A stretch of 64,000 nt of DNA, from NCBI GenBank assembly GCA_963820525.1, contig CAWGAA010000001.1:1440001-1504000 (forward strand), given 5' to 3'. Every line of letters begins with the position of its first letter. The first letter of the stretch is position 1. The translations under genes and the position numbers were made by a program. This DNA is from an uncultured Spirochaetota bacterium (GTDB lineage Bacteria; Spirochaetota; Spirochaetia; SZUA-6; Fen-1364). The notes beneath the pieces were generated by a model. The model saw only the letters and a list, made by a program, of their open reading frames with translations. It ran no database searches and had not been told where the DNA came from. This document shows positions 37,378 through 53,672 of the stretch, in pieces.

Positions 37378-37407
37378 TTGACTCCGCGCAATGGGCGGGA
37401 GTATTTT
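37378..37407 (+). promoter_or_regulatory. Promoter TTGACT-N18-TATTTT for the atp operon
   Basis: The -10 ends 9 nt before the atpB ATG at 37417; no SD present. Confidence 0.5.
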
Positions 37408-37416
37408 CTGATTGCG

Positions 37417-38148
37417 ATGCAGTCCCTCGGCCCCGAGACGATATTTCAATTTCTCGGATATCGAGTGACAAACACGCTCCTCGCCACGCTCCTTGTCGAT
37501 TGCATCCTGTTGACCATCGTCTTTCTCGTCCGCCGGAGGCTCTCCGCGGTCCCGGGGCCTCTCCAGGGCGTCGTCGAGGGATTCGTGGACTATATCGGTA
37601 CCACCACGGAACAGGTTGCCGGAGAGCGGGCCCCGATGATCTTCCCCTGGGTGGCCGTGTTCTTCATTTACATCCTCTTCTCGAATCTCCTGGGGCTCCT
37701 GCCGGGATTCGGCACGATCGGGTTCTTCCGCGCCGGGCGGCTGGTGCCCCTCCTGCACGCGAGCACCTCGGACCTGAACACGACACTCGCCCTGGCCGTG
37801 GTCTCGGTGATAGCGACGCACGTGCTGGCCATCCGCTCCACCGGGATCGCGGCGTACCTGAAACGCTTCTTCACGCTCAATCCCCTGCTCCTGTTCGTGG
37901 GGCTGCTGGAGATCGTATCCGAGCTGACCAAGTTTCTCTCATTCTCGTTCCGCCTCTTCGGCAACATCTCGGCGGGCGAGAGGGTGCTGGGGACCATCTC
38001 CTCTCTGGCCGCTTTCATCGTTCCAATCCCGTTTCTCGCGCTGGAAATCCTCGTGGGCGTCATCCAGGCAATGATATTCGCTCTGCTCACGATGGCCTTT
38101 ATGGCCATCCTGACGGAGCCGCATAAGAAGGAGGGCTCGAAAACATGA
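37417..38148 (+). CDS. atpB: F0F1 ATP synthase subunit a
   Basis: SDLNTTLALA, SFSFRLFGNI with the essential Arg, LEILVGVIQA. Confidence 0.95.
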   Translation: MQSLGPETIFQFLGYRVTNTLLATLLVDCILLTIVFLVRRRLSAVPGPLQGVVEGFVDYIGTTTEQVAGERAPMIFPWVAVFFIYILFSNLLGLLPGFGTIGFFRAGRLVPLLHASTSDLNTTLALAVVSVIATHVLAIRSTGIAAYLKRFFTLNPLLLFVGLLEIVSELTKFLSFSFRLFGNISAGERVLGTISSLAAFIVPIPFLALEILVGVIQAMIFALLTMAFMAILTEPHKKEGSKT

Positions 38149-38357
38149 ACTTCAATTTGATCGCCCACGGCGGGATCATCGTCGCCATTGGAGGCATGCT
38201 GCCCGCTGTGGCCATCGGCCTTATCGGAATGAGGGCGATGGAGGCCCTCGGCCGGAACCCAGAGGCGTCCGGCCGAATCATCCCCGCGATGGTGCTGGCG
38301 ATGGCCTTTGCAGAGGCCATTGCAATCTACTCCCTCATCTTCGCTTTCGTGGGCTGA
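38145..38357 (+). CDS. atpE: F0F1 ATP synthase subunit c
   Basis: GRNPE loop, FAEAIAIY carboxylate; lacks the ES/T motif of Na+-binding c rings. Confidence 0.95.
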   Translation: MNFNLIAHGGIIVAIGGMLPAVAIGLIGMRAMEALGRNPEASGRIIPAMVLAMAFAEAIAIYSLIFAFVG

Positions 38358-38376
38358 AGGTCGGGCGCCGAAACAC

Positions 38377-38892
38377 ATGGAAACTCTCGGACGTTTCGGA
38401 CTGGATCCGGTCCTCTTCGCGGCCCAGCTCGTCAACTTCATCGTCATTGGGTACGTGTTGTGGCGCTTCCTCTTGAAGCCGCTCCTGGCAACGATGAAGA
38501 AGCGAAGCGACGCGATCTCCAAGGGCCTCGCCGATGCCGAGCAGGCTAAGCGGGACCTGGCGGATGCCGCGAAGGAGAGGGACAAGATCGTGGGAGAGGC
38601 GTACACGCGGGCCGCGGTCATTCTCGACAAGGCGCGGGCCGAGGCGGTACTGGCGCGCGCGGCAGTCGAGGATAGAGCGCGGCGGGACGCCGAGCGGATC
38701 CTGGTCGAGTCCCGCTCGCGCTTAGAGCTGGAGCGCCGCGAGGCGGAGCGGGCTGTGCAGGCCCTCGCCCTTGAGCTTTCCGGCCGCATCCTGGAGCAGG
38801 TCGTGTCCTCTCTTTTCTCCGGCGAAGAAAAGACACGGATCGTGGAGCGCGGGTTCGAGCGGATCAGGACCCTCGAACCGACAAGGCGATGA
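38377..38892 (+). CDS. atpF: F0F1 ATP synthase subunit b
   Basis: AQLVNF TM helix, KPL..MKKR, long charged helix. Confidence 0.92.
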   Translation: METLGRFGLDPVLFAAQLVNFIVIGYVLWRFLLKPLLATMKKRSDAISKGLADAEQAKRDLADAAKERDKIVGEAYTRAAVILDKARAEAVLARAAVEDRARRDAERILVESRSRLELERREAERAVQALALELSGRILEQVVSSLFSGEEKTRIVERGFERIRTLEPTRR

Positions 38893-39236
38893 AAAAGGTG
38901 AAAAGGCTCGCGCGTCTGACGCTCGCGGCCGGCGGGGAGGTGGACGAGCAGCTCGCCTCATTCATCCTGGGGCGGCTCACGAGAACCGAGCTCAAGGAGT
39001 ACCTCTTCGAGCTGCGGCGGGCGCTTGGCCGCCGGCGCGTGCTGGTGGCCGTCTCTGGCGAGACGGCACCTGCGCTCCTTGAGGAGCTGGAGCGTGAGTT
39101 CTCCGGCAGGCAGACCGTTGTGTCCAGGGACGAGAGCCTGGGCGGCGGGGTGCGCCTGAGAGCGGGAGACGACGTTATCGACGCGAGCGTGAAGGGCCTG
39201 TTCTCGGAGACTATGGACAGATTGAGGAAGGGATGA
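38889..39236 (+). CDS. atpH: F0F1 ATP synthase subunit delta (short form)
   Basis: C-terminal DESLGGGVRLRAGDDVIDASV; position between b and alpha; only 115 aa. Confidence 0.85.
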   Translation: MKKVKRLARLTLAAGGEVDEQLASFILGRLTRTELKEYLFELRRALGRRRVLVAVSGETAPALLEELEREFSGRQTVVSRDESLGGGVRLRAGDDVIDASVKGLFSETMDRLRKG

Positions 39237-40750
39237 AGGCTGAAGAGCTGATTCGACAGATCGAGGAGAGGCTGGCACTCGTCGAGGTCCGTCCCGAAGT
39301 GGCCAATGTCGGGAAGGTCATCACCCTGGGCGACGGCATCGTGAAGGCGGACGGGCTTTCCCGCGCCGGCTACGGCGAGATCGTCGAATTCGAAGACGGC
39401 TCACGAGGCCTTGTGATGAACCTCGACCAGGATTTCGTCTCGATCCTGACGCTGGCTGAAGACCCCACCGTGAGGGAAAGCATGGAAGTGCGCACGACCG
39501 GCGAAATCCTCTCCATAGCCGTTTCAGAAAGCCTCATCGGCCGCGTCATAGACCCCTTCGGAAATCCCCTCGATGGAAAGCCCCTGACCCTTTCCGGCGG
39601 CGAGCCCTACCCCCTGGAACGGATCGCGCCGGGAGTGACGGAACGCCAGCCCGTGTCGGTGCCGCTGAAAACAGGCATCAAGGCGGTGGATACGCTTACG
39701 CCCATCGGCAGGGGCCAACGGGAGCTCATCATCGGAGACAGGAACACGGGAAAGACCGCGCTCGCCATCGACGCCATCATCAATCAACGCACCAAGGATC
39801 TGGGGCTTCCACAGGTGATCTGCGTCTACTGCGCCATGGGCCAGAAGCGGGGGAACATCGCGCGCACCGTGGCCAGGCTCCAGGAGGAAGGGGCCATGGC
39901 GTACACGATCGTGGTCGCCGCCAGCGCCTCGAACCCGGCCTCACGGCAGTACCTGGCCCCATTCGCCGCATGCGCCATCGCGGAGTACTTCATGCACCGG
40001 GGCGGCGACACGCTTGTCGTGTACGACGACCTTTCCAAGCACGCCTGGGCATACCGCCAGCTCTCCCTCCTGTTGCGCCGGCCGGCCGGCCGGGAGGCTT
40101 ACCCCGGAGACATCTTCTACCTCCACTCGCGGCTTCTGGAACGCGCGGCGCGCCTTTCCCCGGCCAAGGGCGGGGGATCGCTCACCGCGCTTCCCATCAT
40201 CGAGACCCAGGCGGGAGACGTATCGGCCTACATCCCGACCAACGTCATCTCCATCACGGACGGCCAGATCTACCTGGAGACCGACCTCTTCAATGCGGGA
40301 ATAAGGCCTGCCATCAACGCGGGCCTCTCCGTTTCGCGCGTGGGCGGCCAGGCCCAGACCCGGGCGTTCCGCCAGGTGGCCGGCCCCCTGCGTCTCGACC
40401 TCGCCCAGTACAGGTCGCTGGCCGCATTCTCCCAGTTCGGAAGCGACCTGGACGACGCCACCACGAAGCGCATCGCGCGGGGAAAGCGCCTCGTGGAGAG
40501 CCTCAAGCAGCCCCAGTTCAAGCCGCTGGACGAGGTATCCGAGATCATCGCCATCCACGCGGCCAGCTCCGGGCTCCTGGACGACCTGCCCTTGGAGAGA
40601 ATCGCGGCATTCGAAGGTCAGCTCATAGACTCGGTGCGCGCAGGCCACAAGCCCCTCGTGGAGAAGCTCGCCACGGGGGCCAAGGCGGAGGCGGAAACCC
40701 TTGACGAGCTCAACCGCGCCATAATTGAGCTGAAGACGGCGTTCCGATGA
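39233..40750 (+). CDS. atpA: F0F1 ATP synthase subunit alpha
   Basis: GRGQRELIIGDRNTGKT, GREAYPGDIFYLHSRLLER, PTNVISITDGQ. Confidence 0.97.
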   Translation: MKAEELIRQIEERLALVEVRPEVANVGKVITLGDGIVKADGLSRAGYGEIVEFEDGSRGLVMNLDQDFVSILTLAEDPTVRESMEVRTTGEILSIAVSESLIGRVIDPFGNPLDGKPLTLSGGEPYPLERIAPGVTERQPVSVPLKTGIKAVDTLTPIGRGQRELIIGDRNTGKTALAIDAIINQRTKDLGLPQVICVYCAMGQKRGNIARTVARLQEEGAMAYTIVVAASASNPASRQYLAPFAACAIAEYFMHRGGDTLVVYDDLSKHAWAYRQLSLLLRRPAGREAYPGDIFYLHSRLLERAARLSPAKGGGSLTALPIIETQAGDVSAYIPTNVISITDGQIYLETDLFNAGIRPAINAGLSVSRVGGQAQTRAFRQVAGPLRLDLAQYRSLAAFSQFGSDLDDATTKRIARGKRLVESLKQPQFKPLDEVSEIIAIHAASSGLLDDLPLERIAAFEGQLIDSVRAGHKPLVEKLATGAKAEAETLDELNRAIIELKTAFR

Positions 40751-40772
40751 GACGTGAAAGCGGAGGGGATTG

Positions 40773-43454
<2,682 letters not shown>

Positions 43455-45099: not shown

Positions 45100-45128
45100 T
45101 TGACAGCAATGGGAATGTGAGGTATAGT
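45100..45128 (+). promoter_or_regulatory. Promoter TTGACA-N17-TATAGT for the tetR-family gene
   Basis: Near-consensus hexamers with a 17-nt spacer and an upstream T-tract. Confidence 0.8.
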
Positions 45129-45165: not shown

Positions 45166-45782
45166 ATGAAATAAAAAAGACAAGCCGAGCGATCCAGAGC
45201 GAACAGACCCGCGAGCGCATCATGGAAGCCGCGACGCGCCTCTTCGCCAGAAAGGGCTACTATGCCACCTCGATTGCGGACCTCTCGGCCTCGGTGGAGG
45301 TTACCAAGGGCGCCCTCTACCACCATTTCGAAAACAAGGAGGCGATATTCTTCGCGGTCATAGAAAAGATACGCACGACGTGGACGAAAATCGTGGCACG
45401 CGACGTTTTGAAGTCACGCGATGCCCTGGAGAGGTTGTCTCGGCTGGTGGACAATCATGCACGCCTCATCGTGGAAAACGAGTCGTTCTGTCTCGTCGTC
45501 AATGCCCTCATGATGGAGATGGATGGTGTAAACCCCGCTTTCCTGTCGGCCCTGTATCAGATCTATATCGAGCTGGCCGGCTTCATCGAACAGATAATCC
45601 GAAAAGGCCAGGATTCCCATCAGATCAGGTCCGACATAGATCCGCGGCTGATGGCCCTTACCACCGTGGGGATGTTGCGGGGCATAGGCTGCTCCAGGCC
45701 CATCTTCCAGCGGATGGACGTCGATTTCCAGGCACTGATGGAAACCTTGAAGAAGGTGCTTATCGCGAGCCTGAAGCCCTGA
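45166..45782 (+). CDS. TetR/AcrR-family regulator (probable 1-bp deletion at 45169-45171; called ORF starts at 45222)
   Basis: LFARKGY..TSIADL...VTKGALYHHFENKEAI; the frame continues upstream as IKKTSRAIQSEQTRERI and one extra A links it to the ATG at 45166. Confidence 0.88.
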
Positions 45783-45854: not shown

Positions 45855-46340
45855 ATGGACCTTGAGAACATCGCCTATCTGCCCAGCTATGACGAATGCT
45901 ACGTCTGCGGACAAAACCATCCCCGAGGATTGCGCATCCGCTTCTTCGCGGGCACGGACAATCGGGTGCACGCCCGGTTCCACCCCGACGACACCCAGAC
46001 GGGATACGATGACGTAGTTCATGGCGGCGTCGTGAGCGCTCTTCTGGACGAGCTCATTGGCTGGTCCGTCTCGCTGAAACACCAGCGCATGGCATTTACC
46101 GCCGAGCTGACCGTCCGTTTCATTAAGCCTCTGAGGACCGGCAGGAGCTATCTGGCAACATCCCATATTTCCGGGGGGAAGGGCCGTCTCTGGGAGGCCG
46201 AGGGAAGCGTTGCCGACGAAAACGGAGAGCTCTTCGCGAAGGGACACGGCAAGTACTTCCTTCTTTCAGAGGAGCAGACCTCCGCGGTTTCCCGAAAGAT
46301 GACATACCAAGCCGGCGATATGCCGGTTTTCCACCGCTGA
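45855..46340 (+). CDS. PaaI-family (hot-dog fold) thioesterase
   Basis: CYVCGQNHPRGL, VVHGGVVSALLDE, TAELTVRFIKP; SD AGGAGG. Confidence 0.88.
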   Translation: MDLENIAYLPSYDECYVCGQNHPRGLRIRFFAGTDNRVHARFHPDDTQTGYDDVVHGGVVSALLDELIGWSVSLKHQRMAFTAELTVRFIKPLRTGRSYLATSHISGGKGRLWEAEGSVADENGELFAKGHGKYFLLSEEQTSAVSRKMTYQAGDMPVFHR

Positions 46341-46352
46341 CAAGGAGTCAAA

Positions 46353-48353
46353 ATGGAAGGAACGACGACCGGCACATCCGAAAGCCCTGAGGCCTTCTCC
46401 GAGTTGGAGCGCGCCGTGCGTTCGGCGCTCGAGACCTACAGCAACGTTCACCGCGGCAGCGGCCACAACTCCATGATAACCACCGCCCTGTACGAAGGCG
46501 CTCGGGATGTCGTGATGGATTACCTGGGCTTGAATCACGGCCGGCACACGGTCATCTTCGGCACCCTCAGAAGCGCATCGCGCCTGCGGGCTCGGCTGGA
46601 TCCCGCCGGTTATCGCGTATTGTCCAGCCGGGAGCTCGGCCTGCCGCTCGGGGTTCGGGCAATCACCGTTGAACGCAAAGCCCTGCCGAAAGGGGCGCCG
46701 GATCAGAGCGGCGGCGGCACAGTGAAGATCGTCTCGCCGGGCTCGGCCATCTGGGCCGACGCCCCCGATAGGTTCGAGGCGGGGACTCCCGGCATAGTCA
46801 ATGTCATCGCTTTCGCGAAAGCGCTCCAGCTCACCCGCATCTTCGGCCCTGACGCATTCCAGGCCCGCGGAGAGCGCGACGGAACAGCAGACCGGATCCT
46901 GCATGACGATGAGCAGACTCACCGCTCAGGCCTGGAGCTCCTAGGCGAGCTGCGGGCCGCCGTGATAGGGCGCGATATCCTCGTCCCGACGGCGAATGGC
47001 ATGCGCCGATATGTCAATCTGGACAATGCGGCCAGCACTCCAGCCTTCCTCCCGGTCTGGGACGCGGCACGCCGGACATTGCGCCTGCCCGCTTCGGCGC
47101 GTGGCCCCATGATTGAAAAGGCGCGGGAAATCTGCGCCGACTTCCTGGGCGCTCCGCTCAAGCAGTTCACCATCGTCTTTACCGGGAATGCGACGGAAGC
47201 CATCAACCTCGTAGCGCAAGGCTTTTGCGGCCGGGAGAGCGTGGTGGTGCTCAACACCCTGGCGGAGCACAACTCAAACGAGCTTCCCTGGCGCTTTATC
47301 CCCGGTATCAGCCTGCTGCGGCTGCCGGTTGACAATGACGGGTTCGCGGAGCTGGGCCTCCTGGAGGGATTGCTGGAAGAGCACAATGGAAAACGCGCCC
47401 GCGGGCGCACAAGGATCAGCCTGGTGTCCGTGAGCGGCGCTTCCAACGTGCTGGGGGCCTGCAATGACATCCCGGCCCTGAGCCGGCTGGCGCACCGGTT
47501 TGGAGCGCGCATCCTGGTGGATGCCGCGCAGCTGGTGGCGCACCGCCGCATTTCAATGGAAGAGCTCGGGATCGATTTCCTGGCGTTTTCGGCGCACAAG
47601 ATGTACGCGCCATTCGGAAGCGGGGTGCTCGCGGCAAGGAAGGGCCTTCTTCATTTCGACGCCCGTGAATCCGCCCTGATCGAGGCCTCCGGCGAGGAGA
47701 ACGCCGCGGGCATTGCCGCGCTGGGAAAAGCAATGATTCTGCTACGTCGCGTGGGCATGGACGTCATCGAAGCCGAGGAGCGGAAGCTGACGGCGCTGGC
47801 TCTCGAGGGGCTCGCGCGGATTCGGGGCCTGAAAGTCCATGGCGTGGAAGGCCCTGCATCCTCCGGATTTCGGAGCAAGGCCGGCATCATCGCCTTCGGC
47901 TTCGACAGGGTCCCGCACAATCTTGCGGCCAAGGAGCTTGCCGAGCGCGGGGGAATCGGGGTGCGAACCGGCTGCTTCTGCGCCCATCTCCTTGTCAAGC
48001 GCCTGCTCAAGATACATCCGCTGCGGGCCAAGGCCGCGGACATCGGCATGACTCTTTTTCCCCGGCTCTCAAGCTCACTGCTCCCCGGGTTCGTCCGCGT
48101 GAGCTTCGGCATCGAAAACGACGAAACCGACGTGGACCATTGCATCGGGACCTTGAGCGAAATAGCCCTTGCCCCAAGGATGGCGGCGGACAGGCTGCTC
48201 GCCCGGATGCACAGCGGGACTCCGCGTCTGCCCCGAACCGCGCCTCAGGCAAGCATGGAGATGCTCGCGCAAGGCGCGCTTGGGAGGATCTATTCACCGA
48301 CGGCTCGAACAAGGCGGCAGCGCCAGAGGAGGAAATTCAGATGTTGCGCATGA
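46353..48353 (+). CDS. Class V PLP enzyme (SufS/cysteine desulfurase-like) with a duplicated partial N-terminal module
   Basis: LDNAAST, EHNSN, DAAQ, SAHKMYAPFG and RTGCFCAH in the C-module; YSNVHRG and RFEAGTP only in the N-module. Confidence 0.85.
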   Translation: MEGTTTGTSESPEAFSELERAVRSALETYSNVHRGSGHNSMITTALYEGARDVVMDYLGLNHGRHTVIFGTLRSASRLRARLDPAGYRVLSSRELGLPLGVRAITVERKALPKGAPDQSGGGTVKIVSPGSAIWADAPDRFEAGTPGIVNVIAFAKALQLTRIFGPDAFQARGERDGTADRILHDDEQTHRSGLELLGELRAAVIGRDILVPTANGMRRYVNLDNAASTPAFLPVWDAARRTLRLPASARGPMIEKAREICADFLGAPLKQFTIVFTGNATEAINLVAQGFCGRESVVVLNTLAEHNSNELPWRFIPGISLLRLPVDNDGFAELGLLEGLLEEHNGKRARGRTRISLVSVSGASNVLGACNDIPALSRLAHRFGARILVDAAQLVAHRRISMEELGIDFLAFSAHKMYAPFGSGVLAARKGLLHFDARESALIEASGEENAAGIAALGKAMILLRRVGMDVIEAEERKLTALALEGLARIRGLKVHGVEGPASSGFRSKAGIIAFGFDRVPHNLAAKELAERGGIGVRTGCFCAHLLVKRLLKIHPLRAKAADIGMTLFPRLSSSLLPGFVRVSFGIENDETDVDHCIGTLSEIALAPRMAADRLLARMHSGTPRLPRTAPQASMEMLAQGALGRIYSPTARTRRQRQRRKFRCCA

Positions 48354-48541
48354 AGAGGAATGTCGGCGGGATCGACCGCGGCCTGCGTATTGCAGTGGGC
48401 CTGGCGATCGGCGCCGCGGGTGTCTGGTTCAAGGATTGGGTCGGCCTCATGGGGATCTGGCCCATCCTTACAGCGGTGTTCGGTTTCTGCCCGATGTACG
48501 TGCCCTTCGGGCTCTCGTCGTGCAGGCGCGGGAAAGCGTGA
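48341..48541 (+). CDS. DUF2892 (YgaP-like) small membrane protein
   Basis: KRNVGGIDRGLRI, two TM segments, GFCPMYVPFGLSSC; SD GAGGAGG; alternative ATG at 48350. Confidence 0.85.
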   Translation: MLRMKRNVGGIDRGLRIAVGLAIGAAGVWFKDWVGLMGIWPILTAVFGFCPMYVPFGLSSCRRGKA

Positions 48542-48587: not shown

Positions 48588-50834
48588 CTACTCTTCGCTC
48601 ACGAATGGAACCGCGTCAGACTGCTCCGCCGCGCGCGCGCCGCTTGCCCCTTCCGCTCCCGTTTGGGCCAGGTACCCCAAATCGCGCGCCCGCTCCGGAT
48701 CTATGCCTTGCGCCTTTGCCAACGCGTTTTGCGCCCCGGCGGGGTCATGCAGCGCATTGTAGGTCCGGGAAATATCGAGCAGGGCGATCAAGGCCATCTG
48801 GGTTTGCGTCTTGCCCTGCGAAGCGAGCGCCGCGAGCGCGGCCTGATAGGAGGAAAGCGCCTTGCGGTAGTCTTTCTGGATGTATAGGACGTTTCCCTGG
48901 TTCACTCGCGCGCTCACGAAAGACGGATCTATGGCAAGGGCCCGCGCAAAAGCCGCTTCCGCCTCGCTGTTGCGGCCGAAGCGCGCCATGGCGATCCCGA
49001 GGTAGTTGTAGTCTTTCTTGTCGCCGCTCGCCTTTGCCGCATTCGCGAGGTCTCCTGTGACGGATTCTCCAAGGCTTGAAAGCTCCTGACGGAAGGGGGC
49101 GACAAGCGCATCGCCCCTGCCGTACTGGAGCCCCAGGTCCAATTCCCGCAGCCCGACAGCGCGGAAGGTTTTCTGCGCAACGCCGGTGAGCGTGAAGCGC
49201 CGCTTGGCCGCCTCTCCATCATACTGCTTCCACAGCTCCGCCCCGCGATGCCAGGCATCCAGGAAACCCTGCTTTCCGATCATGGTGATCTCCACGGGGA
49301 TCCAAAGCTCGCCGTCCAGCGCGATGCTGAGATTCCTGTCCGGCGAGATGTCCCTGAAGTCCCTGGATGACACCTTGGTATTGAAGGCCGCGTAGATGTG
49401 TCCGGGAACAGTGATGAATCCCGTTTCGATACCGGTGGTCTCGAGGAGGCTCGTGAATAGGACGGTGAGGTCGTCGCAATCCCCCGTGCCACGCTTGAGG
49501 GTGTCCCGCGCCAGGTTCACCGAATCGACCATGAGGGCATTGCCCTGGACCTGCGTGAAAGGCGATGTCGGGTCGGACTGGTAGATGATGCCCAGCCGGG
49601 ACAGGGCGACATAGACTTCCGCCGCCGTCTGCAGGGCCCCGTTGAGCGAGGGCAGCATCTGCTGCTTGAGGCTCTGGCGGATGAAGCTCACGTAGTTTCG
49701 AAGAGCCGAATCCGACGGCGTGATGAAGGCTCCCACCTTGCGGTCGTCGTCCCACACGATCGCCGTCTTGTCGTACAGGTCGTAGGAGAGGGAGTGCCGT
49801 TGCTCGACCGGCTTGCCCCTGGAGCGATACTTCACGATGAGCTCGCCCGCAAGGGGAGTCGTGCCCTCGGTGCGAAAGACCTCCTGGTTGAAGGCCGCCA
49901 GCACCCCGATCTCGGTCTCCTGACCCGGGGCAAGGGACGGGATCGTGGTCACGGGGGTGGGCGAATCCATGTAGCCGGGCTGGAAGAAGGAAACCTCGAG
50001 GTCCGTTATGGGGAAGCCCTCCGAGTTTGTCATTTTCACCGTGCCGATCGGGTTCTGCGCATAGTAGCTCTGCATCGCGGCAAAGGCGGGAGGCAGCTTC
50101 TCCGACCCGAAACGCAGGCTCCTGATCGAAGAGGCGGGCGCGTCGGGGTCTTCTCCGAAACGGTAGCCCACGCGGAACCCCAGCCCGAACGAGAACCCGT
50201 CGAACTCGGTCAGGGGGCCAAGGGTGGCAAGATAGCGCACGGATGGACGGATGTCGACGCCGAAGTTGAAGGAGGGCACGAGGCTGATGACGGCCCCGAG
50301 GGAACCCAGGAGATCCAGCGAGCCGACGGCGCCCCCCGATACGAGATTCGGATAGCTGGATTGGGCGAGGCCGCCATAGGCATCCAGCCCGATCTCGAAG
50401 TTCCTGGCAAAACGCCGGGTGTAGGAAAGACCGATCGCGCCGTAGTAGTCCGCGTGGTCCCACTTTCCCGCCCCCGAGGAGCCGGTCTCCGTGAAGGAGA
50501 TGACGCCGCCGCGGACGAAGGGCTGCAGGACGGGCGCGCCGGGAATGGGCACGCGAAGCTCCGCCGCAATGTCCCGTATTCCAAAGCCGGAGGCGAATGA
50601 TGAGAACGCCGTCAAACCCTCGTACTCCGCCCCGATGGAAATGGGAAAGCTGTAGTATTCGTCCAGGTTGATGACTGCTTCTCGTGAGCCCGCGGCGGGG
50701 CCGGCCGCGACGGCGGCCGCGTCAGATTCCGCCCTGGTCTGCGCAGGGGCCGGCGCGCCGCAAAGGATAATAACGATTCCCGCGATTGCGAGGCCCGAAG
50801 CCCCGCCGCAATGGAAATGAACGGTCATGGTCAT
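48588..50834 (-). CDS. Secreted multidomain protein: beta-barrel-like N-terminus, Ig-like region, transglutaminase-like domain, TPR
   Basis: Signal-like N-terminus, amphipathic strands ending GFRVGYRF, GDCDDL...GHIY...VEIT, C-terminal TPRs. Confidence 0.7.
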   Translation of the reverse strand: MTMTVHFHCGGASGLAIAGIVIILCGAPAPAQTRAESDAAAVAAGPAAGSREAVINLDEYYSFPISIGAEYEGLTAFSSFASGFGIRDIAAELRVPIPGAPVLQPFVRGGVISFTETGSSGAGKWDHADYYGAIGLSYTRRFARNFEIGLDAYGGLAQSSYPNLVSGGAVGSLDLLGSLGAVISLVPSFNFGVDIRPSVRYLATLGPLTEFDGFSFGLGFRVGYRFGEDPDAPASSIRSLRFGSEKLPPAFAAMQSYYAQNPIGTVKMTNSEGFPITDLEVSFFQPGYMDSPTPVTTIPSLAPGQETEIGVLAAFNQEVFRTEGTTPLAGELIVKYRSRGKPVEQRHSLSYDLYDKTAIVWDDDRKVGAFITPSDSALRNYVSFIRQSLKQQMLPSLNGALQTAAEVYVALSRLGIIYQSDPTSPFTQVQGNALMVDSVNLARDTLKRGTGDCDDLTVLFTSLLETTGIETGFITVPGHIYAAFNTKVSSRDFRDISPDRNLSIALDGELWIPVEITMIGKQGFLDAWHRGAELWKQYDGEAAKRRFTLTGVAQKTFRAVGLRELDLGLQYGRGDALVAPFRQELSSLGESVTGDLANAAKASGDKKDYNYLGIAMARFGRNSEAEAAFARALAIDPSFVSARVNQGNVLYIQKDYRKALSSYQAALAALASQGKTQTQMALIALLDISRTYNALHDPAGAQNALAKAQGIDPERARDLGYLAQTGAEGASGARAAEQSDAVPFVSEE

Positions 50835-50843
50835 CCTCCTCGA

Positions 50844-53672
50844 TCAGGGCATGAGGTCGATAACGTAGAGCTTGGAGGCTCCGTCGATCGCGTAGAGCCA
50901 GCTCTTGTAGGCAACGAGCCGAACGGGGCTGAATCCGGCCTGGGAGAGAACCCCGGCGGAAACGGGGCTTCGCGGATTGCTCACGTCCCAGATCTGGATT
51001 CCCGCCGCCCCTTTTGCCACGTAGGCGAAGTTACCCCGCACAACGACGTCCAGGGCGCCCCCTCCGCTTGGGACGGCCGGCCAAACCGGCGCCTGCCCGG
51101 CGGCGCTCCAGCTCCTCGCGTTGGAGGCGTCAAAGACAAGAAGGCCGTTTGTCGAGTCCGCCACCAGGACGCAGTCCCCGGCGGCGGCAACGGCGGCCGC
51201 TGAACCCGATGCCGGCAGCGCGCCGTATCCGCTTAAGACCTGGGGCCACTGGGGATTGGAGATGTCGACCACCCTGAGCCCGGCCTGCTCATTGGCCACG
51301 AAGGCCAGGTCTCCCATGAGGGCGGCGCCCGCGGCTTCATGATTGGAGTCGACGGTGGGCTGCGTTTGGACGCTCCCGGCCAGGATCAGGTTCCCATCCC
51401 AGGAGAGATCCACAGCATCAAGATAGGAGCCGCTCGTGGTCACAAATGCATAATTGCCCGACAGCGCGATAGACCACGCATAGCCGCCGGGAAGATTGAC
51501 ATACCAGGGATAACCGCCATGAGGCGAGGAGGGATCCGTCGCATCCCAGATCATGATTCCGCTTCGCTCCGCAGCAACCAGGGCATGATTGCCGGCGAAC
51601 GCGAATGCGTAGGGAGTGTATTCGCCGTTCCCGCTTGTCCATGCGGTCTTCACTGTCGCAGAAGGAACTGAAATGTCGTATGTCGAGGCCTTCCAGTCCC
51701 CGCTTCCATTCTCGGACACGAAAATCCTGTCGCGATAAGCTGCAAGCCGTGCCCCCGTATTGACGTTTGTAAGGGTCAGGGCAAGGCTCATGGTGGAGGC
51801 GTTTCCTACGCCGTAGATGACCACCCCATAGCCCGAGCCCGCGGAGATGTAGGCCAGACCGCCGCTTGCGTCGATGCCATGAGGGTGCCCGGGTATGGTG
51901 TAGGTCTGAAGGAGCGACATGGAAGCTGGATTTGATATGTCTATAATCGAGAACCCGTAATCACGAAGGCTTACGTAAGCCCTGTTTCCATCCAGGGCGA
52001 TATTCTCGGCGGCCGCTGTGCCGACGGCGGGCGCAATGCCGGCGCCCAGCTGGCTGGGAGCGGTGAGAGTGGACGTGTCATACGCGTACAGTGACCAGCC
52101 GCCGCCCGCGCCGGCGACGTACAGCGTGGTGCCGGAGAACCGGCCCGTATAGCCCCCGCTCACTGTGGAAGACTGCAGGTTGAGGGTGGGACTGGAGTCC
52201 GTTCCCGTGACCGTGTAGATGGCCGTTTTGGAAAGGCCGGTAACGGCAAGGACCTTCGTGCCCGCGCGATCCTGAGCATCGACCGAAAGATTCTGTCCGA
52301 TCCCATCTGCTACTCCCTGGTTGGAGAGTCGCACGACGGGGTTCGCCTTGTCGGTGGCGTCGATGACCGCGAAGCCGTCATTGAAGCCGGCGACAAACAC
52401 GAGGTTGCCGAGAACGACGACGCCTTCGGCCTGAAGTCCGCCGTTGTCTGGAATGGCCACGCTCCCCGTGAGAACGGGAGAGGTCGGGTTGGAGATATCG
52501 ATGATGCAAAGCGATTTATTCGTGGTGAGGTACGCGTAGCTTCCCGAAATGGCGATGTCGTTTGCATTCTGCGCGGAAAGCCCGCCGGCCGGAAGCGGCA
52601 GCGACGGTTGATGGACGTCCGCCACGCGAAGCCCGTAGTAATAGTCAGTAATGAAAAGGTAGCCGTTTTCATAGACCAAAGACTGCGGATAGTCCGCCCC
52701 GTTGAAAGTGCTTATATTCGCGTCCATCCGCGAGGGCATGGGATCCGAGGCCACCTCCGCGTACTCGCTCATCACGGAGCTGTACTGCGCGGGACGAACG
52801 GCATAGTAGTAGGTCGAGCCCTGGACAATGCTCGTGTCGTGGAAGGGCGGCGCCGCCACGGGGCCGGATATGCTCAGGAAAGGTCCGCTGGGAGAGGGTG
52901 AGCGAAGCACCTCGTATTGGGGAATGCCGGGGAAAACGTGCCAGGTGACATCAACATAGTTGAAGTGCGGGATTATCGTGGGCAACAGGTTGAAGGTGGA
53001 AAGCGGAACGGCCCGGACAACGGGTGAAAATTTCTTTTTCCCGTCCGACGTGTCGCCTTCAAGCAGGAAGCTGTACACGGACCCGTTCTTGAGCTGCTTC
53101 ATCACGTAGGGCGAGGTCACGCCGGCTATTTTGGCGGACTTCAGGGGATCAGGAGCCTGAGCTGAAGGTTCGACGTAGAGGGTATAGCCGGTCACGCCCG
53201 GAACGGGACTCCAGGCGAGGGTGGTTTGCCTGTTGCCTTCAGATGAAGAGAAAGATGGGATTTCGTTTCCCACCCACGTCAGGGGCAATGTGGCGGTGGA
53301 AGTGTTGCCGTCCCAATCCACGGCCGTGAACTGGAAGGTGATGTTCTCCGTGAGGTCCGTGGACTCGACGATGTGGAAATGGCCCGAGGAATCCAGGGAA
53401 GCCGTTTTCAAGGCGGTCCTGGCCAGGATGAGGTACTGGAGGGATTTCACCTGCCCAGGGGTGCCGGCGCTGTTTGCCAGGTCGGAAACCACGCCATCAA
53501 TGACAATGTTCCGGGAGTAGCTTGAGTATTCCGCGGGGCTTGTGATGGTAATGACAGGCGGCACAATGTCCCGCGCATTATCCGCAACCGATCCCGTTAT
53601 GGGAGCAGGGCATCCCAGGATGACAACCAAGCAGATTGCCGCGCATATGGGGAGAAATAGCCTTCGATACAT
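50844..53672 (-). CDS. Lipoprotein with Ig/FN3 domains and LVIVD-repeat beta-propellers
   Basis: Lipobox VILGC, FN3-like YTLY / YYYAV strands, many 'xxxAYV...GLxIIDISNPxxP' repeats. Confidence 0.82.
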   Translation of the reverse strand: MYRRLFLPICAAICLVVILGCPAPITGSVADNARDIVPPVITITSPAEYSSYSRNIVIDGVVSDLANSAGTPGQVKSLQYLILARTALKTASLDSSGHFHIVESTDLTENITFQFTAVDWDGNTSTATLPLTWVGNEIPSFSSSEGNRQTTLAWSPVPGVTGYTLYVEPSAQAPDPLKSAKIAGVTSPYVMKQLKNGSVYSFLLEGDTSDGKKKFSPVVRAVPLSTFNLLPTIIPHFNYVDVTWHVFPGIPQYEVLRSPSPSGPFLSISGPVAAPPFHDTSIVQGSTYYYAVRPAQYSSVMSEYAEVASDPMPSRMDANISTFNGADYPQSLVYENGYLFITDYYYGLRVADVHQPSLPLPAGGLSAQNANDIAISGSYAYLTTNKSLCIIDISNPTSPVLTGSVAIPDNGGLQAEGVVVLGNLVFVAGFNDGFAVIDATDKANPVVRLSNQGVADGIGQNLSVDAQDRAGTKVLAVTGLSKTAIYTVTGTDSSPTLNLQSSTVSGGYTGRFSGTTLYVAGAGGGWSLYAYDTSTLTAPSQLGAGIAPAVGTAAAENIALDGNRAYVSLRDYGFSIIDISNPASMSLLQTYTIPGHPHGIDASGGLAYISAGSGYGVVIYGVGNASTMSLALTLTNVNTGARLAAYRDRIFVSENGSGDWKASTYDISVPSATVKTAWTSGNGEYTPYAFAFAGNHALVAAERSGIMIWDATDPSSPHGGYPWYVNLPGGYAWSIALSGNYAFVTTSGSYLDAVDLSWDGNLILAGSVQTQPTVDSNHEAAGAALMGDLAFVANEQAGLRVVDISNPQWPQVLSGYGALPASGSAAAVAAAGDCVLVADSTNGLLVFDASNARSWSAAGQAPVWPAVPSGGGALDVVVRGNFAYVAKGAAGIQIWDVSNPRSPVSAGVLSQAGFSPVRLVAYKSWLYAIDGASKLYVIDLMP

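Follow-up and report, generated by a model that had tools for sequence, protein, structure and literature searches.

The window analysed here, a stretch of 64,000 nucleotides of DNA from an uncultured Spirochaetota bacterium, carries on its plus strand a gene for a SufS-like protein of 666 residues, which likely forms one operon with genes for a TetR-family regulator, a hotdog-fold thioesterase and a small YgaP-like membrane protein. What we take to be an F-type ATP synthase operon (a, c, b, delta, alpha, gamma, beta, epsilon) lies at 37378-43454, and genes for an LVIVD-repeat protein (942 aa) and a TPR-bearing protein of 748 aa converge from the minus strand (48588-53672) on the operon of the SufS-like gene. 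The features of the locus are listed below, with SufS residues numbered as in the E. coli sequence and counts referring to full-length relatives unless stated otherwise.

45100..45128, plus strand: sigma-70-like promoter match (11/12) upstream of the TetR gene, a consensus match alone
45222..45782, plus strand: regulator of the TetR family, whose gene opens the likely operon and is not conserved as a neighbour among relatives
45855..46340, plus strand: thioesterase with a hotdog fold (4HBT), its gene stopping 12 bases short of the ORF, in 0/53 relative loci
46353..48353, plus strand: whole ORF, 666 aa, SufS-like, PF00266 (class V PLP fold)
46386..46598, plus strand: N-module part 1, aa 12-82, corresponding to SufS 34-105 (helix, alpha3-alpha4 loop, alpha4, strand, alpha6 remnant)
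46437..46457, plus strand: YSNVHRG, with H33/R34 as SufS H55/R56 (H in 184/185, R in 185/185, G in 185/185)
46599..46844, plus strand: N-module part 2, aa 83-164, corresponding to SufS about 215-300 (the lysine loop, now dead, then Gly loop, hairpin, Pro, EAGTP and the first part of the long helix)
46632..46634, plus strand: E94, standing where the PLP lysine K226 would fall (Asp/Glu in 171/185, Lys in 1/185)
46710..46790, plus strand: GGG (SufS 252-254), beta-hairpin (aa 124-134) and EAGTP, with T145 as SufS T278 (184/185)
46710-46718, plus strand: GGG of the N-module
46776-46790, plus strand: EAGTP of the N-module
46845..46928, plus strand: linker, aa 165-192, without any column conserved at 90%, largely ordered in the model
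46929..48179, plus strand: C-module, aa 193-609, aligning to SufS 2-406
47079..47108, plus strand: C-module deletion site 1, HRG loop (SufS 51-61) absent
47598-47600, plus strand: PLP lysine K416 in SAHK of the C-module
47652..47702, plus strand: C-module deletion site 2, lacking SufS about 248-267 with the Gly loop and hairpin
47964..47981, plus strand: RTGCFC, with the equivalents of R359 and catalytic C364 (185/185)
47979-47981, plus strand: catalytic Cys C543, equivalent to C364
47994..48083, plus strand: helical insert following the catalytic Cys, of hydrophobic and cationic character in the fusions
48183..48350, plus strand: C-terminal helical extension, poorly conserved, last 20 residues of low confidence
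48341..48541, plus strand: YgaP-like transmembrane protein of 66 aa (PF11127), whose gene shares 13 bases with the end of the ORF

The ORF at 46353-48353 has zero internal stops, and Pfam matches PF00266 to it in two stretches. All 20 of its NCBIfam matches fall under their cut-offs, including the top-scoring SufS model TIGR01979 (226 versus 475 bits), the CsdA model TIGR03392 (148.5 bits, cut-off 493.6) and the SclA model NF040779 (92 bits, cut-off 525). Comparison with solved structures pairs residues 107-159 with residues 246-298 of S. aureus SufS and residues 254-433 and 456-552 with its residues 76-250 and 292-381, so that a piece of SufS stands out of order and is absent from its usual place. 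The cluster of the protein at 90% identity has three members of 666 residues each from separate sources, and hence the ORF is not an assembly slip.

When a profile of N-modules (n = 85 non-redundant sequences) was compared with that of a parent subfamily of ordinary single-unit proteins (n = 55), it aligned to SufS 34-105 and 217-300 with an hhalign probability of 99.9 (E 2.8e-35). A sequence-only reading of this DNA had held that the N-terminal part keeps only the YSNVHRG and GGG to EAGTP motifs and lacks the PLP lysine; the motifs are there and the lysine register is occupied by E94, but what is kept is two continuous stretches rather than the motifs only. Absent from the N-module are SufS 1-33, 106-216 (with H123 and the residues N175, D200 and Q203, which have roles at the PLP site of SufS) and 301-406 (the small domain), and its alpha6 remnant has lost T94/T95, E96 and N99. 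The C-module matches SufS 2-406 at 367 of its 405 residues in a structural alignment (Z 31, rmsd 1.9 A), with values of Z 31-33 and rmsd 1.8-1.9 A against type II SufS chains, and carries D224, T281, H306, N365, D390, Q393, K416, R538, C543 and R582. LDNAAST, EHNSN, DAAQ, SAHK and RTGCFCAH are all located in it, as had been claimed. It had also been read as having lost the two N-terminal motifs, with SGEEN in place of AGTP, and this is correct as far as it goes (SGEEN is aa 446-450, and ASGEE in a short helix stands where EAGTP was), but more than motifs is gone: there are two clean deletions, of about 10-11 residues at the HRG loop (50 versus 60 residues in the parents) and of about 19-20 residues at the Gly loop and hairpin (34 versus 53).

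A direct BLAST of the N-module against the C-module reaches only the edge of significance (E 0.004), which is what complementary halves should show, and no DNA repeat was found between the two copies. The AlphaFold model of the single chain, built from a 46-sequence alignment and read as scores and secondary structure, has a pLDDT of 93.7 and a pTM of 0.93 with five models agreeing; the N-module folded alone without an alignment gives a pLDDT of 42.6. A fold search ranks SufS first (Z 32.0 versus 25.5 for C-DES and 24.5 for human SCL), and in a wide fold search 17 of the 50 matches listed have ranges that, by their end points, start inside the N-module and run through the C-module, which is a weak hint as to how the N-module packs. 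Many of these 17 are presumably enzymes with an N-terminal arm at the dimer interface. The linker is 28 residues long in 137/185 relatives and 24-34 residues in 179/185. The insertion after the catalytic cysteine is hydrophobic and positively charged in the 85 fusions (GRAVY +0.32, charge +2.8) versus polar in the 55 parents (GRAVY -0.75, charge +0.3), and from its composition it may either bind membranes as a helix or form a new surface for internal packing.

The split between the modules is conserved throughout the family. The 351 proteins gathered comprise 186 full-length fusions (185 unique), 78 parents and 87 that were dropped, mostly fragments. Fusions were classed by BLAST coverage with no motif used, and 120 candidates were found via the N region; the parent class required an HRG-like motif, so the HRG count among parents is by construction. 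Among the 185 fusions the N-module retains H33 in 184, R34 and G35 in all, G120-122 in 183, 185 and 180, E142 and G144 in all and T145 in 184, with a lysine at position 94 in one, while in the C-module H306, N365, D390, Q393, R538, C543 and R582 are each present in all 185 and K416 in 184. Conversely, the motifs HRG, GG[GS] and E[AP]G[TS]P each occur in 0/185 C-modules, the T278 position is Thr in 3/185, and the beta-hairpin and Gly loop, gone from every one of the 185 catalytic modules, stand on the N-module alone. The reciprocal loss of motifs that the sequence-only reading had proposed to look for across homologues is thus found in all 185 full-length relatives, and each chain has one PLP lysine and one catalytic cysteine. 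Mean pairwise identity among the 85 non-redundant sequences is 44% in both modules, and relatives reach down to about 37% identity with the same breakpoints. Of 166 loci, some of them from a metagenome scan that used C-module patterns alone, 56 were C-type: the N-module shares the ORF in 47, a contig end truncates 9, and none has the C-module alone; one locus scored as parent-type while holding a full N-module.

The N region matches 1529 clusters (90%) at E<=1e-20. Named carriers include members of Chloroflexia, Thermoflexales, Actinomycetes, WOR-3, Bacteroidales, Ignavibacteriales, Dehalococcoidia, Acidobacteriota and Omnitrophota, and all of one set of 20 fused loci come from metagenome bins. 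Around the present genome the distribution is patchy, with the fusion, by a single-protein query and counting this genome itself, in 2/61 near relatives, 0/24 of the same family and 3/301 in the phylum. Three weak, ordinary-type matches were found on viral contigs and none in a plasmid search. The family is annotated generically: the ESM Atlas gives its matches automatic class V names alone, and JGI calls many members 'selenocysteine lyase/cysteine desulfurase'. Several unusual forms were encountered. Giant proteins of 1476-6923 aa with signal-peptide-like starts (P0007, P0021, P0033, P0059, P0061, P0071, P0098, P0105), two of them named Omnitrophota, embed the whole N+C unit beside unrelated HD, HATPase, PMI, GNAT and NUDIX domains. 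P0041 (657 aa, from one JGI contig of 3854 bases) is circularly permuted, with the order small domain, N-module, PLP domain and its break at the site where the C-module lost the hairpin, and could be an assembly artefact. In a search for split genes, the 120 examined of 238 short matches have scattered ends and many tails like frameshifts or contig ends, and P0359, P0074, P0084 and P0151 have internal deletions (in P0359 the N-module is joined to the small domain at the homologous helix) that are due to either recombination or misassembly.

In PLP enzymes of fold type I both subunits contribute to every active site, which is why two are needed, and in SufS T278 binds the PLP phosphate of the neighbour. 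According to passages of PMC11408855, the R56 loop belongs to the adjacent monomer, as does alpha4; passages of PMC10011822 place the Gly loop, S254 and the hairpin at the adjacent monomer's site, and the same hairpin placement is given in passages of PMC4934914 and PMC13066941. Passages of PMC11507941 give catalytic roles to R56, R359, H123, K226 and C364 and have R56 touching G277/T278. The N/C split follows the segments that these accounts assign to the adjacent subunit (PMC11408855, PMC10011822, PMC4934914, PMC13066941), and the claim that the HRG-side and EAGT-side segments serve the partner's site agrees with what they say of the R56 loop, alpha4, the Gly loop and the hairpin, and, for the EAGT segment, with the background on T278. 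One residue, N99, does not simply fit the rule, as it is kept in the C-module (Asn in 177/185) and lost in the N-module (an Asn nearby in 3/85). In E. coli SufS it ties alpha6 to the Gly loop (N99-G251), and variants that have lost this latch anchor expose the persulfide and free turnover from SufE, according to parts of PMC10011822. If the bond crosses subunits, N99 is one more match to the split, or else the N-module has a latch without its anchor; if the bond lies within one subunit, the N99 pattern is the opposite of the simple rule.

We propose that the protein is, with good probability, a type II cysteine desulfurase in which a single chain forms a pseudo-dimer with one active site. By sequence, the C-module holds the whole PLP site and the catalytic cysteine, without the segments that SufS subunits lend each other, and the N-module holds those lent segments without a PLP site. 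The N-module would fold back over the 28-residue linker into the position of the partner subunit, where H33/R34, the Gly loop and hairpin, and T145 would complete the site around the PLP on K416. By homology with SufS, L-cysteine would be converted to L-alanine and a persulfide on C543, while the second site of the ancestral dimer would be gone on both sides, and we infer that the protein is a monomer. With less confidence, the sulfur may go to a partner other than SufE/SufU or leave via the second cysteine of RTGCFC, C541, which is present in 183/185 relatives. The earlier proposal of a pseudo-dimer with complementary halves gains support from the reciprocity in 185 proteins, the one-chain model, the lack of stand-alone C-modules among the loci scanned, and relatives in which the dead N-copy is still whole (see below). 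A cysteine desulfurase is the best guess as to activity because all the desulfurase residues are present and SufS chains are at the top of both fold searches.

The same parts could be arranged otherwise. It is quite unlikely, in our estimate, that the N-module instead completes the C-module of another chain, so that an oligomer is formed whose sites may communicate. The linker is long and unconserved (24-34 residues in 179/185), a one-chain prediction cannot separate swapped from unswapped forms, and the hydrophobic helical insertion could provide an oligomer surface; however, the linker is ordered in the model, the closed monomer has a pTM of 0.93, the linker lengths cluster at 28 (137/185), and for an N+C unit inside giant multi-domain proteins a self-contained site is simpler. 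That the C-module dimerises with itself via a remodelled interface, leaving the N-module as a regulatory or partner-binding domain, we consider very improbable: while the C-module does keep the alpha6 residues T95, E96 and N99 and type I desulfurases work without the hairpin (as stated in part of PMC8918507), the H, R, G, GGG, E, G, T and P conserved in the N-module all face the neighbour's site in SufS and would not be needed by a free regulatory domain, the T278 position is lost in the C-module (Thr in 3/185), and a stand-alone C-module was found in 0/56 loci.

A pseudo-dimer of this architecture might also carry out other chemistry, as a selenocysteine lyase or a C-S lyase acting on cystine or S-substituted cysteine and perhaps releasing H2S, and this we regard as possible if unlikely. 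Pointing in this direction are the JGI names, although they are generic, selD matches in 13/21 carriers, the CxC made by C541, which is absent from E. coli SufS, the scarcity of the SufU-binding His (only 42/185 proteins) and of SufE (1/53 loci), and cysteine-synthase-like PALP genes directly upstream in two loci. Against it, the SufS desulfurase residues (the equivalents of R359, C364, H123 and R56) are invariant or nearly so, SufS chains come first in both fold searches, 8/21 carriers (incomplete genomes) have no selD match, and several other carriers hold an in-frame desulfurase-selD pair elsewhere. An assembly artefact or decaying duplication has a negligible chance of accounting for the gene: members come almost wholly from metagenome assemblies and databases hold many short or internally deleted forms, but it is refuted by family-wide conservation, with the same breakpoints in 185 distinct full-length proteins whose identity falls as low as about 37%, the 1529 clusters matching the N region, and the lack of a DNA repeat between the copies.

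The proposed pseudo-dimer has relatives of ordinary build. The uncharacterised parent subfamily (RxGCFCA, 430-500 aa; L021-L080, from Zixibacteria, Ignavibacteria, Clostridium and others) is 35-40% identical and shares the N-terminal segment, the CFC motif and the post-Cys insertion, but each member is a single ordinary subunit in which every motif keeps its normal place and the insertion is polar. The C-modules of the fusions form one clade nested among these parents. In two fused proteins, P0077 (1247 aa) and P0069 (2672 aa), the N-copy is a whole large domain that is catalytically dead, with HRG, GGG and E-V-G-[TS]-P kept and K226, H225, H123, Q203 and T95 lost, and their C-modules already show both deletions; the lysine loop of P0077 is Asp-x-Gly, the same state as in the short N-modules. 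An IQ-TREE quick search on 39 chosen sequences with the trait columns taken out supports the fused clade with an SH-aLRT of 100 and has P0077 and then P0069 branching first (SH-aLRT 66.8 and 87.3), and FastTree on all sequences gives the same order (supports 0.52, 0.84 and 0.90). Support for this branching order is moderate, and since the trees are rooted on nothing but E. coli SufS and the two proteins are single long-branch sequences, it is likely rather than proven. P0077 and P0069 are likely evolutionary intermediates, and their whole dead N-copies point to a route in which a gene of the RxGCFCA parent subfamily would have been duplicated in tandem and fused, followed by reciprocal loss and then deletion of the core of the dead copy. 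A search of 685-2183 aa proteins at E<=1e-25 for further relatives with a whole dead copy of the P0077 type found P0077 itself alone.

Like E. coli and B. subtilis SufS and CsdA, the fused enzyme has the C-module fold and the equivalents of K226, H123, R359, C364, R379 and R56, as well as the Gly loop, the hairpin and the short Cys loop of SufS/CsdA. It differs in that SufS is a two-site homodimer, whereas here the catalytic module has lost the lent parts, which a separate 155-aa module in the chain carries instead, in having RxGCFC rather than RxGHHC together with an insertion after the Cys, and in that it is not encoded in a suf operon and scores below the TIGR01979 cut-off. No term for the CxC residues was found in the ABA3 paper. 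With two homologous copies and a PLP lysine in only one, the fused family resembles SPT1/SPT2, the viral single-chain SPT and GcvP. The last is a fold type I pseudo-dimer that arose by duplication, with the lysine in the C-terminal half alone and with alpha/beta split or fused forms, but its halves are near full subunit size, and it is a decarboxylase that dimerises further; what is presumably a GcvP match, 1wyt_B, appears in the fold search with Z 20.4. As described in sections of PMC6148460, SPT1/SPT2 and the single-chain SPT of Coccolithovirus have one copy with the lysine and one without, and the viral enzyme is likewise one polypeptide with, presumably, one site. SPT belongs to the AOS family rather than class V, has the catalytic half first and has two halves that are both subunit analogues, and those sections of PMC6148460 report neither interface-only trimming nor reciprocal deletions in the catalytic half. 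Hence one-site PLP pseudo-dimers are already known; what is new is a dead copy trimmed to an interface module, with matching deletions in the live copy and with intermediates. Cysteine desulfurases are described as homodimers in passages of PMC8918507, and a literature search thin on subscription papers found no report of a one-site pseudo-dimeric cysteine desulfurase.

The natural deletions appear to mark which residues serve a subunit's own site and which serve that of its neighbour, and the N-module appears to show how little of a partner suffices, some 155 residues out of 400. With 1529 clusters by N region, the family is large, and it spans many phyla. Half-sites regulation in SufS is reportedly the subject of a 2024 study by Gogar and Frantom, to judge from its title. 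Such regulation via the hairpin is proposed in passages of PMC10216065. With a relative that has one site, it could be asked if a second site is required for turnover and for protecting the persulfide, and such a relative would offer a blueprint for a one-site E. coli SufS. As to the suggestion that this gene is a natural test of half-sites regulation, the family shows that a one-site design can persist, but with only about 30% identity to E. coli SufS, the loss of R92 in both modules and the loss of N99 in the N-module it cannot serve as a matched control for that enzyme.

The genome also holds sufCBDS and a SufU-like gene on contig C2, apart from the 666-aa ORF, and in 17 of 21 carriers there is likewise a second PF00266 match, scoring at least 463 bits, the level of this genome's SufS. 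The fused enzyme is therefore probably accessory and not the housekeeping desulfurase for Fe-S clusters. Where the SufU-binding motif is His-Pro-His-Asp (passages of PMC9730764 describe the binding His), the present protein has V-P-H-N, and the binding His is found in 42/185 relatives. Matches to selD in carriers (13/21, with none in the other 8, whose genomes are incomplete) are counted without a baseline. Neighbours at 53 relative loci include an XRE regulator in 8, DUF4386 in 4, PALP cysteine-synthase-like genes in 2, DUF4395 in 2, DsrE in 1 and SufE in 1, with weak matches to the YgaP-like protein in 2; SufB and SufD had no match in these 53 loci, and no conserved neighbour or operon naming a pathway emerged from them, with Pfam run on the 60 of 148 neighbour ORFs that are co-directional. 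The neighbours thus listed tilt slightly, in a count without a control, toward sulfur and membrane genes. A fuller picture, in which a monomeric one-site desulfurase with a 155-residue partner clamp works without SufE/SufU, resolves its persulfide through its own CxC and uses a cationic amphipathic helix on membranes to feed membrane sulfur carriers, with the whole-dead-copy intermediates and the permuted form recording its route, is speculative and, taken as a whole, rather unlikely.

DUF4395, a possible membrane sulfur partner, is fused to the ordinary-type relative P0118 (632 aa) and adjoins two fused members (L011:7929-8573 and L105:4243-4902). An XRE-type HTH gene, mostly together with a gene for a 148-aa membrane protein, lies upstream of the fused gene at L005, L013-L015, L018, L090, L107 and L110. 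Class V and selD matches share one frame of 734-791 aa in seven genomes (G066, G068, G072, G073, G074, G076, G079), which suggests desulfurase-SelD fusions, and a Dak2 domain is fused to the ordinary-type relative P0147 (673 aa). Two further unusual class V proteins are encoded in the present genome, one of 569 aa with RAGCSC (C3:84824-86533) and one of 457 aa that, by pattern match, is without the usual lysine motif (C1:1793511-1794884).
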